From positions 1 through 63,533 of the forward strand of contig JACSSA010000079.1 of the NCBI GenBank assembly GCA_014879465.1: 63,533 bases of DNA, read 5' to 3'. Position numbers and translations under genes: made by a program. The notes under the pieces are model-generated. The model did no database searches and had not been told where the DNA came from. It saw nothing but the letters and a program-made list of their open reading frames with translations. This stretch comes from Rhodothermales bacterium. GTDB taxonomy: Bacteria > Bacteroidota > Rhodothermia > Rhodothermales > BA12. This document shows positions 22,872 through 28,583 of the stretch, piece after piece (the first letter of the stretch is position 1; the number at the start of each line of letters is the position of its first letter).

Positions 22872-24971
22872 ATGGCTTTCGACGAACCCAACACGCCGCG
22901 CGGCACCGAGCCGGAGCGCTCGTCCTCCAACCCGCCCCGCCTCTCTCCCGAGCGGCGGCCCAAGGGCCTCATCCTCATCTTTTTCGCCCTCCTCTTCACG
23001 CTGCTCGCCCACTACCTCGTCTTCTACGGCGGCGAGTCGAGCAGCACGGTCGAATACAGCGCGTTCCTCCAGCAGGTGCAGCGCGGCGACGTCGAGGAGG
23101 TGACCATCGTCAACGGCAAACGGGTGGACGGCACGTTCACCCGCGAGGCCGTCGAGCAAGGCCGCGTGCCTTCGCCCGCCGCCCGCGAGACGTTCTCCAA
23201 TCGTCCCGCCGAGCCGTCGCGGCGCTTCACGTCGGTCAAACCACCCGACCACGACCTCACGCAGTACCTCATCGCCTACAACGCCCAGGCCGATTCGGCA
23301 GGCAAGACGCCGGTCGTCTTCGAGGCCAAGGTGGAGGAGAACATCGCCGGAGGCATCCTCGGTTGGGTGCTGCCGCTGCTGCTGCTCGTGGCCTTCTGGC
23401 TGTTCGTGATGCGCCGGATGAACCCCGGCCAGCAGGTGCTCAACATCGGCAAGAACAAGGCCACGCTCTTCGACGCCACCGAAGGCCAAAAGCTCACGTT
23501 CAAGGACGTCGCGGGCCTCGACGAGGCCAAGGAAGAGGTGGTGGAAGTCGTGGAGTTCCTCAAAAACCCCAAGCGCTTCACCCGTCTCGGCGGCAAGCTG
23601 CCCAAGGGCGTGCTGCTCGTCGGCCCGCCCGGAACCGGTAAGACGCTTCTCGCCAAGGCCGTCGCCGGCGAAGCGGGCGTGCCGTTCTTCTCGCTCTCCG
23701 GCTCCGACTTCGTGGAGATGTTCGTCGGCGTGGGCGCGGCCCGCGTGCGCGACCTCTTCAAGCAGGCCAAGGAAAAAGCCCCGTGCATCATCTTCATCGA
23801 CGAGATCGACGCCGTCGGACGCTCGCGCGGCAAGGGGATGATGATGGGCGCGAACGACGAACGCGAGAACACGCTCAACCAGCTCCTCGTGGAGATGGAC
23901 GGCTTCGCCACCGACAAGGGCGTCATCATTATGGCCGCCACCAACCGGCCCGATGTGCTCGACTCGGCGCTTTTGCGCCCCGGACGCTTCGACCGGCAAA
24001 TCCTCGTGGACACGCCCGACCGCAAGGAGCGCGCCGACATCTTCGCCGTCCACACCCGCAACATCACGCTCGCGCCGAGCGTCAACCTCGACGTGCTCGC
24101 CGCCCAGACGCCGGGCTTTGCCGGCGCTGAGATCGCCAACGTGTGCAACGAGGCTGCCCTCTTGGCCGCCCGCGAGAACAAGGAGTCCGTGGAGATGATG
24201 GACTTCGAGAAGGCCATCGACCGCGTGATCGGTGGGTTGGAAAAGAAGAACAAGCTCATCTCGCCCGAAGAGCGCAAGGTCGTCGCCTTCCACGAGGCGG
24301 GCCATGCCATCACCGGCTGGTTTTTGGAGCACACCGACCCCGTCGTCAAGGTGTCCATCGTTCCGCGCGGCCTCGCTGCCCTTGGGTACGCGCAGTACCT
24401 GCCCGACGAGCGCTACCTCTACACCAAAGAGGCGCTGATAGATCGGATGGTGATGGCGATGGGCGGGCGCGTGGCCGAGGAGATCGTCTTCGGGCGGATC
24501 ACCACGGGCGCGCAGAACGACCTCGAGCGCATCACGGCGATGGCCTACGGAATGGTGGTGGACTACGGCATGTCCGAGTCCATCGGTTACGTCTCGTTCA
24601 ACATGGCCAAGCGCGGCGAAGGCATGTCTTTCGACAAGCCGTACTCCGACGCCACCGCCCGCCTCATCGACGAGGAGGTGAAGCGCATCATCGGCGACGT
24701 GCGCGAGCGGGCGCGGCATCTGCTCACCGAGAAGCGCGCCAAGATGGACGAGCTGGCGCAGGCGCTCCTCACCAAAGAGGTGCTTGGCCCCAGAGACCTG
24801 ATCGACATCCTCGGCCCGCGCCCCAACGGCAACTACGTGAACGTCGGCGGCGACTCGGCCACCGGCGACGTGCCCCCGCCGCTTCCCGGCGGCGAAGCCG
24901 GCGACGCCAGCACGCACGGCGGCACACCGCAGATCATCGCCCCCGGCACCAACGAAGGCACGAGCCTTTGA
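22872..24971 (+). CDS. ftsH: ATP-dependent zinc metalloprotease FtsH
   Basis: 2 [40 protein letters not shown]. Confidence 0.97.
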
Positions 24972-25017
24972 GGACGAAGAAGAGAGGTAAGGCGCGGGCA
25001 CATTTTGTGTTTTGCAC

Positions 25018-25047
25018 TTGACATTTTCGGTGTGGATAGTGTATTCT
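25018..25047 (+). promoter_or_regulatory. sigma70-type promoter candidate
   Basis: TTGACA-N18-TATTCT, about 30 nt upstream of ATG 25078. Confidence 0.5.
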
Positions 25048-25077
25048 TTCGGAAGCGCTTCCATCTACACCGCTCTT

Positions 25078-27281
25078 ATGTCCTCTCTCTCTCTCTCTGG
25101 CGCACACTCGTAGTGCTGTGCCTTGGGTTTCTTGTTGCTGAATCCTCGGTGGCACAAGGCTGGTGGCGCGAGATTCCAGTCCCCAACGATTCGGTCTACA
25201 CCATCGTTCAGAAAGACGACCGCTTTGTCCAGCGTTACGTGGTCCGGCAAGGGCAGCAGCCGCTGTTTTTGGTCCCCAGCGTTTCGTCGTTTCGCAACAT
25301 TGTGGCGGTGGTAGACGGAACGCCAACGTTGGTGTACAACGAGCCGGTGCGCTCGGAAGGCGTGCTCTGGTATCCTGCGCTTACGGCACGTGCCCAGCCC
25401 TACAACGTTCGGATAGAAGTTCTGGACAACGGCTACCAGCCGTACCACTACGACATCGAACTGATCGTGGTGCCTCCGGCTACGCGAGCCTTTACGGACG
25501 ATGCACAGTACGCTGCAGCCGTGGCCATCAACTCAAACGGCCCGGTCTTCCGAACCCGCGACAACACGATGCTGCTGTGGTCAAGCGCGCCTGCCACCTC
25601 GCCCGCCTCGCTCGACAAACCGATGCTGATGGTGGAGGGCATAGACGCCGAGCAGAAGAACCACCCAGCGGTGTACTACGGGCTGGGCGCGGCTATCTTC
25701 GGGCAAGGTCAGTCAGAAGGGGCGGACGTGGTGATTCTTGACTTTGCCGATGGCGGGCGCGACATGGTGCAGAACGCGGCGGTGGTGGCCGAAGCGGTGC
25801 GTACGGTGCGACGCTTCTCCACCAACCGGCAGCGCGGCGTCGATGTGGTGGGCGTGAGCATGGGCGGGGTGGTGACGCGCTACGCGCTGGCCCAAATGGA
25901 GGAATCCACCTACGGACAGCAGTCGCACGCGGCCACGCGGTTCGTTTCGCTCGACGCGCCGCAGCAAGGAGCCGTGGTGGACTATCACTTCCAAGCGGCG
26001 ATCAACGAACTCAGCGGCAATGCTCCCCTTCCGCTGCTGTTCTGGAGGCGGGCTTCCGCGCAGTTGCTCCAGCGGTTCTACTGGCCGAGCGGTCAGGGCT
26101 TCCACACCGCCTTCTACCAAGACCTTCTTTCCCGCAACAGCGGCCACGGCTACCCGCGCCGCACCGAGAACGTGGGCGTATCGTTTGGGGCGTTGCAGGG
26201 CAATCCGCCGAGGAATCCCGACGAAGGAGACGAGTGGTTGGAGATCCGCAAGCCCCTTCTCAACCCCCACTTCTATGTGGTTGAGGACATCGCGCGGCCC
26301 GGGTCGTGGCTTCCGAGCGATATCACGGACATCTGGGGCCGCACGTACTTCAAGTTCATTCCAGTCACTTACGAACTGGATCGCAAACCGGGTGGCAATC
26401 CGACGTTTATTCCGTTCGTGAGCGCCCTCGACCGCACGAGCATCTACGGCCCGTCGCGCTTCGACGGCCCGAACATCTACCCAGCCACGACATCGTACCA
26501 CGACGATGTACCAGACGATGTTACTCCCCGTGTCCTGCATCGAATGGGCTATAACGCGCCCACGCCAACGTCGGTGCAGATCAGCGGGCCTACGTCGCTG
26601 GCGCAGGGCGAGCGGGGATGGTGGAAGGCTACCACCAACCTTGGCCCGGAATACGGTTTTCCGTACTACTGGGAGTACCGGCTGGTGTGGCCCGGTTGCT
26701 GGGGGGACGACGAGCCGATGATGGCCCAGCGTGGCATGGCCGAAGACGCGTCCGAAAGCGCCAGCAAGCCGGGGGGAGGCGAAACCGACCTGATCACGTG
26801 TGGGCAGTGGGCCGAGGGGACGGTGTCGGCCAACTTCCAGATGGGGGTGGTTGCCTCGAACATCTGGATGGAGATTCGCGTGCGTGCCGACGATAGCCTT
26901 CCCGGCGGTGGCACGGCGAGCGTCTACAGCCCCGTCTTCACCGTTTCTATCGGCTACACGCCTCCGCCTGACCCGGAGTGGAACCGCACGGGCGGGGGCG
27001 CGGCGGTAGATCGTCCCGCCTTTGCCGTGTCGGAGGCGACGCCGCAGCCGGTGCGTGCGGGTCAGGCGTTTTCGTTTGCGGTGACCGCTCCGGAGGCAGG
27101 GCCTGTGGAAGCGGTGCTCTACGACGTGCTTGGGCGCGAGGTGCACCGCGAGCGTCGCGAGCAGGGCGCGGGGGTCGAGCCGTGGCGTATGGCGCTGCCG
27201 GACGTGCCGGCTGGGACGTATGTGCTGCGCGTGCAGATCGGGCCGGACGTGCGCACGCAGGTCGTTCGTGTCCAACGCTAA
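25078..27281 (+). CDS. T9SS type A CTD-containing alpha/beta hydrolase (lipase/PGAP1-like); likely ATG out of frame at a (CT)8 tract
   Basis: GVSMGG nucleophile elbow, SLDAPQQG, FIPFVSALD, C-terminal LYDVLGREV...[12 protein letters not shown]; main open frame runs 25005-27281. Confidence 0.8.
25083..25098 (+). repeat. (CT)8 microsatellite directly after the start codon
   Basis: ATG-TC-(CT)8-GG. Confidence 0.85.
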
Positions 27282-27678: not shown

Positions 27679-27837
27679 GTCGAGCCATGGCGTATGACGC
27701 TGCCGGATGTGCCGGCTGGGACGTATGTGCTGCGGGTGCAGGCCGGGACGGAGAGCCGCGCGCAGATCGTTCGTGTCCAACGCTAAACCCGAGGAGGTGT
27801 ACGATGAGAAAAGGCCTTCTTGCTCTGATGCTTGGTG
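27679..27837 (+). repeat. CTD/RBS/signal-peptide repeat, copy B
   Basis: 159-bp copy of 27174-27332, 505 bp downstream; still reads [35 protein letters not shown]. Confidence 0.9.
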
Positions 27838-28148
27838 CTTCGCTCGTAGGGTGCGACGAAGGTAGAGGGTGTATAGGTGTTCGTGGTGTTGTGGTTGACT
27901 CGTTGACTATGGAGCCATTGAAAGATATAAATATGTCGCTTGTGGCAGGATGGGGGATAAATGTCGATGTAGATTATACAGATATAGAAGGTAGATTTGA
28001 TTTAGAATATTGCAACGAAAGTAATTTGTTTTTAACAACAAATGCAACCTTTATCGGCTCGCTTCCGAATTCGGGATACAAAACCCTGTCGGAACTGATA
28101 AGACGTTCAGGCCGCTACGAGCGCCGCATCCTGCTTCCTCGGAAGTGA
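27804..28148 (+). CDS. small lipoprotein 2, paralog of lipoprotein 1
   Basis: same SD and first 11 aa; shared C-terminal YERRILLP; divergent AT-rich core. Confidence 0.75.
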   Translation: MRKGLLALMLGASLVGCDEGRGCIGVRGVVVDSLTMEPLKDINMSLVAGWGINVDVDYTDIEGRFDLEYCNESNLFLTTNATFIGSLPNSGYKTLSELIRRSGRYERRILLPRK

Positions 28149-28174
28149 TCGCATGGAACAAGATGAACTGGTCT

Positions 28175-28396
28175 CCGCAGCCGGTGCGTGCCGGTCAGGC
28201 GTTTTCGTTTGCGGTGACGGCTCCGGAGGCTGGGCCTGTGGAGGCGGGGCTCTACGACGTGCTGGGGCGTGAGGTGCACCGCGAACGGCGCGAGCAGGGC
28301 GCGGGGGTCGAGCCGTGGCGTATGGCGCTGCCCGATGTGCCGGCTGGGACGTACGTGCTGCGGGTGCAGGCCAGAACGGAGAGCCGCACGCAGGTC
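28175..28396 (+). pseudogene. orphan T9SS CTD fragment (repeat copy C)
   Basis: 222-bp copy of 27042-27263 running directly into the ftsH-tail copy. Confidence 0.75.
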
Positions 28397-28583
28397 ATCG
28401 CCCCCGACCCGAACGAAGGTACGAGCCTCTGGCCGCTGCTGGCGGTGCCCGCTTCGCGCATTCTTGGCACGCGAGCGGGAAGCCGAAGCGGCCTGCTGCG
28501 TATATTGGAAGGCTCCACGCGAACGGCCTCGCGGCTTCGGCGTGGTCCGACTGTCATCACCTCGCACGCCCAGAACGAACCCC

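Follow-up and report, generated by a model that had tools for sequence, protein, structure and literature searches.

Do the lipoprotein genes that follow a secreted lipase encode its inhibitors, and does such a set of genes serve in conflict with neighbouring bacteria? This question is raised by a locus on contig JACSSA010000079.1 of a Rhodothermales bacterium, a wastewater-type organism with a host genome of 2.97 Mb (67% GC, 99% complete). The contig was analysed as a single stretch of 63,533 nt, referred to here as the window, and coordinates given without a contig name are window positions. The gene order at the locus is ftsH, a predicted alpha/beta-hydrolase ending in a type IX secretion system (T9SS) C-terminal domain (CTD), lipoprotein 1, a CTD tail, lipoprotein 2, a third CTD copy and rpsL. 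We found that this module is real, recurrent and strain-variable; its anatomy, its presence or absence between strains, its variable cassette order, and the recurrent linkage and copy-number variation among homologs were all observed directly. We consider it probable that the lipoproteins inhibit the enzyme at all, while the fuller reading, that of a T9SS lipase accompanied by lipoprotein inhibitors, one cognate and one orphan, and used against neighbouring bacteria, stands in our judgement at even chances.

All features of the module lie on the + strand. The hydrolase gene (25005..27281; 758 codons counted from a TTG, the start codon being uncertain) is separated by 17 nt from lipoprotein 1 (27299..27652; 117 aa), an open reading frame (ORF) that matches PF13715 with an E-value of 4e-4. 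Next come an orphan CTD tail (27672..27786), a remnant of an enzyme-gene 3' end that comprises the last 36 codons with the stop and is 81% identical in amino acid sequence to hydrolase residues 723-758; the intact ORF of lipoprotein 2 (27804..28148; 114 aa); and an orphan, near-complete third CTD copy (28175..28396; TIGR04183, 22.7 bits). DNA repeat comparison delimited a block at 27167..27352, made up of the CTD tail, the stop, a GAGGAGG ribosome-binding site and the lipoprotein signal peptide, that recurs at 27672-27857 with 89% identity over 186 nt. The third CTD copy repeats positions 27042-27263 with 90% identity over 222 nt, and two copies of the ftsH 3' end, diverged from each other, frame the entire insert: the left copy (24906..24970) and the right copy (28370..28431, overlapping the end of the third CTD) are 78% identical over 65 nt. 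The three repeat pairs are well beyond chance (blastn E-values against the genome of 1e-81, 3e-63 and 8e-7). These ORFs, repeats and profile matches bear out what an earlier, sequence-only reading had described, namely a GxSxG hydrolase with a CTD, two lipoproteins and two further CTD copies, with each lipoprotein placed behind the same block of CTD, stop and signal peptide. To this we add that the array holds two lipoproteins only and that the third CTD copy, which in this strain has no lipoprotein behind it, continues into the ftsH-like repeat. No second array with CTD remnants was seen among the 72 CTD segments of the same genome, several of which lie at contig ends.

The folds of the enzyme and the lipoprotein were obtained as models. 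The hydrolase carries a GVSMG motif (GxSxG) at residues 283-287 and gave weak PGAP1, PPT and DUF676 matches below the Pfam cut-offs, with Atlas in agreement. Its model, built with a 90-row alignment (predicted local distance difference test score, pLDDT, 86.5; predicted template modelling score 0.80), begins with a signal-like helix and a beta-rich N-terminal part, continues with an alpha/beta-hydrolase core and an Ig/PKD-like domain, and closes with the CTD; the domain limits are residue ~50 for the putative signal peptide, ~190-520 for the catalytic domain, ~521-650 for the Ig/PKD-like domain and ~672-758 for the T9SS type A CTD. Within that alignment S285 and D317 are conserved in 90/90 rows, H499 in 89/90 and D476 in 87/90, and the predicted catalytic set comprises Ser285, His499 and either Asp476 or Asp317. 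A fold search with the core retrieved bacterial lipases and esterases (best match 5h6g, with Z 17.3 and a root mean square deviation of 3.0 over 208 aligned; 6wpx tied), while a Foldseek search with the whole model of 758 residues gave low TM-scores and was set aside in favour of VIA domain matches. At the N-terminus, a hydrophobic helix (residues 26-44) ends in SVA-Q and is kept in the alleles P0006 and P0056. At the C-terminus, the Por_Secre_tail domain of T9SS type A cargo is present at a score below the cut-off (TIGR04183, residues 680-752, E 0.0013, 18.6 bits against a cut-off of 23); the CTD profile weakly matches the solved CTD chains 8glj and 8glk, the region is modelled as a beta-rich terminal domain, and many hydrolase homologs carry PF18962. 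The family is broad, with 392 cluster representatives at E<=1e-10. A frameshifted paralog in the same genome (L026, G000:C126:1486-3833) matches the hydrolase in two pieces of 38% and 33% identity and ends 27 nt before the end of the short contig C126. The linker domain used alone as a query matched 10/251 genomes, mostly through hydrolase homologs, and delimited no family of swapped enzymes.

The two lipoproteins have lipoboxes FVGC and LVGC, respectively. Their signal peptides are 88% identical at the nucleotide level, whereas the mature parts are only 51% identical in nucleotides and 48% in amino acids, and the identity between cassettes falls off exactly at the lipobox cysteine. Despite 49% nucleotide divergence in its mature part, lipoprotein 2 retains its frame, lipobox and ribosome-binding site; a dN/dS ratio between the mature parts was not obtainable because dS was saturated. 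The mature parts are AT-rich and foreign in composition: their GC content is 39% (lipoprotein 1) and 43% (lipoprotein 2), a level of 39% or less being reached by only 23/9,783 windows of 300 nt in the genome, and their GC content at third codon positions is 0.32 and 0.40, while the enzyme has a value of 0.79, and ftsH and fusA have 0.9. The model of lipoprotein 1 (pLDDT 89.9) is a beta-sandwich resembling transthyretin, CnaB and CarboxypepD_reg domains, and the protein is likely the cognate partner of the hydrolase. Acidic residues follow the lipobox cysteine, which we take to resemble a surface-export signal. Searched by sequence alone, lipoprotein 1 retrieved only itself, lipoprotein 2 and P0005, and further relatives were found only with profiles run on the loci; within its own genome the family occurs at this locus only. 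A broad lipoprotein alignment matching 215/251 genomes was rejected as a family count, as it also matches the CarboxypepD-like domains of large proteins.

Is the module a fixed part of the chromosome? We compared strains using assembled contigs at 80% likeness from 6/24 listed runs, which may include a sister species; two of these runs (X9 and X18) contributed short pieces only. In 2/4 of the remaining runs (X1 and X10) the ftsH-rpsL allele is empty, with a contig joint that leads from 24961 to 28451 across 43 other letters and with flanks that are 97-100% identical to the window (0/185 and 3/234, 2/662 and 7/286 differences). The flanking host genes are an intact ftsH (22839..24971, from the ORF list; Pfam Peptidase_M41, AAA and FtsH_ext on 22860-24968) and rpsL (28590..28988; orthologs 86-97% identical in 10/10 relatives searched), both on the + strand. 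ftsH directly precedes rpsL in 6/9 genomes of the same family and also in G047; G002 and G005, with no ftsH match within ~11 kb upstream of rpsL, and G008, whose locus is cut, are uninformative on the empty site. The enzyme core was detected in 23/251 genomes of the order and in 0/9 other genomes of the family.

Where the insert is present, its alleles diverge more than the flanks, with 154/1,434 nt differing in X8 and 79/960 in X5, compared to 3/537 for ftsH in X5. At the protein level, the alleles P0006 and P0056, which are nearly alike and count as one comparison, show 93% identity, and the changes cluster at residues 419-507 around His499. Cassette joints also differ. The X8 contig carries a CTD most like copy 3 joined to the block of ribosome-binding site and signal peptide, followed by a lipoprotein that departs from the window after 27407; that of X1 has a CTD with the copy-3 upstream junction, then a lipoprotein departing after 27428 and then 1,165 nt unlike the window; and in X5 a lipoprotein-2-like gene (56 differences/401 nt) continues into a CTD that is closest to copy 1. 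The module is therefore accessory and its cassette order strain-variable, which accords with the sequence-only reading of variable lipoproteins and recombination between repeats.

We next consider homologs of the enzyme. An enzyme alignment yielded 160 homolog loci in two sets, one with the best 80 of 217 and another with the best 80 of 150. A narrow profile built from the two window lipoproteins and P0005 only was run on 24,949 six-frame segments, and every outside match at E<0.01 adjoins a hydrolase homolog (L107, L108, L027, five matches in L029, L040 and L038). An expanded profile, which is partly circular as it was partly seeded from its own matches, placed the lipoprotein family near 17/160 loci, including 6/6 of the closest and 12/78 of those with both flanks longer than 700 nt. 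In a tree of 129 cores (the window and 128/160 loci, with duplicates and short rows removed), the window enzyme falls in an 8-row clade with a support of 99 in the Shimodaira-Hasegawa-like approximate likelihood ratio test; 7/8 members lie beside 1-5 lipoproteins, and the eighth is on a contig without flanks. The copy number is 1 in L107 and L108, whose contigs end soon after, 2 in L027, 3 in L143 and in L028 with L211, 4 in L021/L040, and 5 intact, diverged copies in L029. At four of these loci the lipoproteins lie upstream and are divergently transcribed. Thus, when homologs were examined for this lipoprotein family, as the sequence-only reading had proposed, they proved to be linked to it in variable numbers.

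Other clades of the hydrolase have other exported partners, and at least 5 unrelated families flank the enzyme family. The partner clusters include DUF6252 lipoproteins (24 loci), small proteins that are beta-barrel-like as judged by sequence with no Pfam scan (clusters of 11 and 9 loci), lipoproteins of ~450 residues (8 loci) and more. Many unrelated partner families per enzyme family are also a feature of toxin families and their immunity proteins in the available part of PMC7073777. The DUF6252 lipoproteins lie directly before the hydrolase homolog at L084, L081 and 22 further loci, mostly in Flavobacteriaceae, Sphingobacteriaceae and related records, and this makes DUF6252 a candidate partner or immunity family for T9SS enzymes.

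The layout of enzyme, partner, CTD remnant and second partner is not confined to the window, but recurs at two further lipase loci and two metalloprotease loci. In L100, from a Bacteroidota record, an enzyme with a CTD is followed by a partner of 251 aa, a CTD tail of 38 codons and a paralog of 250 aa, and L181 has an enzyme with a CTD, a transthyretin-like lipoprotein, a 232-codon C-terminal remnant with a CTD and a second lipoprotein. At two loci of G029, an M12 metalloprotease with a related linker and a CTD precedes diverged barrel-like partners separated by CTD remnants, with a period of ~1.1 kb. There are four partners at the first of these (L024, C1:340300-346700) and three at the other (L025, C1, ~1882400-1887400). 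The proteases are reprolysin-like, the partners are 215-238 aa long with variation concentrated in a Cys-containing loop, and at L025 the protease is split and one partner is truncated. L027 is framed by a 125-nt repeat of a host gene 3' end (6013-6137 and 9271-9395, 97.6% identical), much like the ftsH repeat of the window. Two other loci resemble L027 in their housekeeping contexts: a related module of 39% GC is inserted between an atpA-like and an atpG-like gene (L023:3334-5505), and a solitary lipoprotein lies between thrS and pheS (L225:4542-4937). No integrase was noticed alongside any of the three. At L022 (G010:C16:18000-26300) a hydrolase homolog is followed by a lipoprotein with a PD40 beta-propeller, a gene of AraC type, ORFs resembling transposases, a second lipoprotein and a metalloprotease that is M10-like and carries a similar Cys-loop linker; short repeats recur between these units.

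How might such an array work and grow? The hydrolase would be exported by Sec and then by the SprA/PorV/PorU machinery, and may hydrolyse envelope lipids, while lipoprotein 1, read like lipoprotein 2 as an outer-membrane lipoprotein, would block it in transit or at the surface of the producer. Likely, lipoprotein 1 binds and inhibits its own enzyme, and lipoprotein 2 related enzyme alleles of other strains, as would be expected of a lipase directed at neighbouring bacteria. Since a folded lipase in periplasmic transit or at the surface threatens its producer, the presence of one partner is explained; several intact, diverged and strain-variable partners are better explained by exposure to the alleles of other strains. 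As to growth, an incoming enzyme-lipoprotein module, anchored by upstream homology, would displace most of the resident enzyme gene and leave behind its 3' end together with its lipoprotein, thereby lengthening the array. The resulting copies of CTD, ribosome-binding site and signal peptide could then permit swaps, gains and losses by homologous recombination, and orphan lipoproteins would persist by protecting against kin. Because the enzyme gene ends in a CTD, any 3' remnant must be a CTD. The sequence-only reading had cast the conserved CTD-coding DNA as the recombination handle. The alternative joints seen between strains suggest such a use at a later stage, but the CTD copies are in the first place a consequence, and the idea that arrays require them was rejected since L027, L029, L040 and L143 hold arrays of 2-5 lipoproteins without CTD copies between them.

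We compared the module with four described systems. The nearest is that of the T9SS KLIKK-peptidases of Tannerella forsythia and the potempins, which are shown inhibitors that act in self-protection according to the available part of PMC9890683. Shared features described there are a T9SS-CTD enzyme with an abutting outer-membrane lipoprotein (potempins have 98-132 residues), near-identical signal peptides with divergent mature parts, and the occurrence of orphan lipoproteins (PMC9890683); at our locus the small lipoprotein likewise abuts the enzyme at 17 nt and has a conserved signal peptide ahead of a divergent mature part (88% versus 51% nt). In contrast to that system, the enzyme here is predicted to be a lipase-like alpha/beta-hydrolase rather than a peptidase, and the partner is modelled as a transthyretin-like beta-sandwich rather than an OB-fold (oligonucleotide/oligosaccharide-binding fold) or an eight-stranded barrel. 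Moreover, the partners here lie downstream, number several per enzyme with CTD remnants between them, and belong to an insert that is present or absent by strain.

The sequence-only reading had instead invoked the Tle lipases of type VI secretion systems (T6SS) and their Tli lipoproteins. In Bacteroides, the tandem lipoprotein genes btli1 and btli2 lie behind the Btle (Tle7) lipase, and that system, as far as it is set out in the available part of PMC13699834, shares with the window a GxSxG alpha/beta-hydrolase with Ser-Asp-His and, behind it, a pair of lipoproteins homologous to each other; the predicted fold and conserved residues of the window enzyme agree with this. That part of the comparison held; KLIKK-peptidases and potempins, which act in self-protection, are nevertheless the closer precedent. 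The window gene has no vgrG, PAAR or adaptor context, its neighbours being ftsH and rpsL, and its product ends in a CTD; TssF (PF05947) was not found in the genome with the query used, and the top fold matches include no Tle. The signal-peptide-like helix of the enzyme, together with its CTD, points to a two-step export without injection. Structure searches listed neither a Tle nor a potempin structure, a result that does not exclude a relationship.

The growth of the array has its counterpart in the orphan immunity arrays of Vibrio cholerae, attributed in the available part of PMC5361080 to sequential displacement by homology-anchored illegitimate recombination with retention of the effector 3' end. 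One enzyme, several partner genes and an effector 3' remnant between them are common to both, but the V. cholerae arrays belong to a T6SS and their orphans match known pairs of other strains (PMC5361080), whereas cognate enzymes of the orphans here were not identified and the 3' remnant is a secretion signal. Finally, for the TANFOR polymorphic toxins of Bacteroidetes, a role of T9SS in interbacterial antagonism, with enzyme-immunity logic, is stated as a hypothesis (PMC7073777, in part). In the portion of PMC7073777 at hand, those proteins combine a marker at the N-terminus with a C-terminal toxin that varies, and CTD proteins are merely their neighbours, while here the enzyme itself ends in a CTD and its catalytic domain is central. 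Polymorphic toxins combine a constant N-terminal delivery part, a variable C-terminal toxin and orphan toxin-immunity cassettes; at our locus the signal for delivery lies at the C-terminus, and the orphan cassettes contain CTD remnants only and no catalytic domain, although strain-variable arrays of diverged partners behind one enzyme are present. A T9SS link is also mentioned for a few Rehh homologs in the available part of 10.64898/2026.09.22.753552. We read the module, at even chances, as working like KLIKK/potempin pairs and Tle/Tli arrays while being a member of neither. Our searches of the open-access literature, supplements excluded, brought up no account of this enzyme family or of such an array; the supplements of the TANFOR paper could list such loci. 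What is new here is the accessory status, the AT-rich transthyretin-like lipoproteins, their recurrent linkage to the enzyme, and the recurrent layout of enzyme-CTD, partner, CTD remnant and second partner.

The host genome encodes SprA, four PorV-family matches and one C25/PorU-like gene, along with ~70 CTD proteins (74 CTD-like segments). Upstream of ftsH, the window holds an 860-aa TPR lipoprotein (20152-22734), presumably akin to SprE/PorW-type proteins. T9SS may be present in Rhodothermota according to the available part of PMC11285876. GldK, GldM and GldN were not found in the genome (the GldM and GldN control queries matched nowhere, and GldL was not searched), suggesting that the T9SS motor is missing or unrecognised here.

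Several points weigh against use of the lipase on neighbouring bacteria, against inhibition by the lipoproteins, or both. With no match to GldK, GldM or GldN, export would follow a route unlike that of the textbook T9SS. Further, T9SS releases its cargo to the surface or medium and does not inject it, so that access to a rival's phospholipids is unexplained, and generic lipases and esterases rather than any Tle fill the top 50 rows of the fold search. Transthyretin-like domains are usually spacers or binding modules, and small outer-membrane beta-barrels, which many of the partners resemble, are unusual as enzyme inhibitors. The lipoprotein family lies near just 17/160 homolog loci, other clades having unrelated partners, and 2/4 members of the L021 array are frameshifted. 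Close relatives of the lipoproteins, alone or paired, occur in at least 6 genomes of the order without a hydrolase match (G250, G161, G229, G201, G209 and G213); in the loci scanned they lie among unrelated genes, and in G229 beside CTD proteins other than lipases. Such solitary lipoproteins fit orphan immunity and equally an independent role. By a crude lipobox pattern, an adjacent lipoprotein was present at 24/67 enzyme loci versus 8/46 other CTD genes of the window's own genome and 0/9 other CTD genes in the fetched loci, a modest excess for which no p-value is given because kin are not independent. Lastly, lipoprotein paralogs mostly group by locus or species, although the L027 and L029 copies interleave, and this grouping fits local duplication as well as displacement. 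Concerning G229, its locus L215 (G229:C269:1-9000) has two tandem transthyretin-like lipoproteins amid CTD-bearing beta-propeller-like proteins, some of them duplicated, and no lipase.

Could the lipoproteins serve only to protect their producer? The lipase would then be a nutritional or surface-remodelling enzyme, lipoprotein 1 would shield the cell's own envelope, and lipoprotein 2 would be a remnant that plays no part in competition. This is how the known T9SS precedent operates (PMC9890683, in part), the ~70 CTD proteins of the genome suit it, and frameshifted array members exist; one inhibitor would suffice, however, and yet up to five intact, diverged copies are found (L029), differing between strains, in an insert as patchy as the genome counts above indicate. 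We consider this explanation unlikely. Rather unlikely, too, is that the partners are cargo-specific surface anchors, chaperones or co-receptors diversified under phage or predator pressure, with arrays formed by tandem duplication. Such roles would accommodate partners that include small beta-barrel-like proteins and several lipoprotein families, a transthyretin/CnaB fold that is common as a spacer or adhesin module, an identical layout with metalloproteases, solitary lipoproteins without an enzyme, and paralogs that often cluster by locus. Against these roles, conservation and sharing would be expected of a secretion helper, but the partner family differs between the clades of one enzyme family; and the same pattern places no lipoprotein next to 38/46 other CTD genes of the genome.

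A last explanation is that a horizontally acquired enzyme-lipoprotein pair has left neutral debris, its partial duplications decaying with no function of the array. Although the CTD copies are truncated, the boundary repeat has diverged, the paralog on C126 is frameshifted and empty strains exist, lipoprotein 2 has kept frame, lipobox and ribosome-binding site through extensive divergence, and the layout recurs in unrelated lineages; this explanation is very improbable. The genomic predictions of the sequence-only reading held, while the CTD as a required handle and Tle/Tli as the closest precedent are weaker than had been stated.

Several features lie near the start of the hydrolase gene. A sigma-70-like promoter match (TTGACA-18-TATTCT, 10/12) lies at 25018..25047 on the + strand; it is a consensus match only, and 3 matches of this type were found versus 1.1 expected in shuffles. 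The in-frame starts TTG 25005 and GTG 25032 are upstream of or inside this match. A (CT)8 tract (25083..25098, + strand) lies in the putative signal-peptide coding region, and relative to the hydrolase ORF the frame of an ATG at 25078 is off by one CT unit. The tract and this ATG could act as a slippage switch; against this, the ATG is absent from the contigs of X5 and X8.

Beyond this locus, T9SS might carry widespread and as yet undescribed inverted polymorphic weapons, in which interchangeable N-terminal enzymes (lipases, M12 and M10 proteases) share an Ig-like linker and a CTD, each enzyme has an immunity protein as its partner, either an outer-membrane lipoprotein or a small beta-barrel, orphan arrays are built and reshuffled at CTD-coding DNA, and a Rhodothermota translocon operates without a recognisable GldKMN motor; we regard this generalisation as doubtful. 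The locus itself is a compact candidate for the question of T9SS antagonism, as it offers a CTD on the enzyme itself, one partner that is likely cognate and one orphan, and alleles that are empty or variant in nature. Were the lipoproteins inhibitors, lipase inhibition would be added to the roles of the transthyretin-like fold, and the potempin principle would reach beyond the peptidases of one oral pathogen to environmental bacteria of the Fibrobacteres-Chlorobi-Bacteroidetes (FCB) group. If, in addition, the enzyme is used against neighbouring bacteria, the layout would point to type IX secretion in fights between bacteria.

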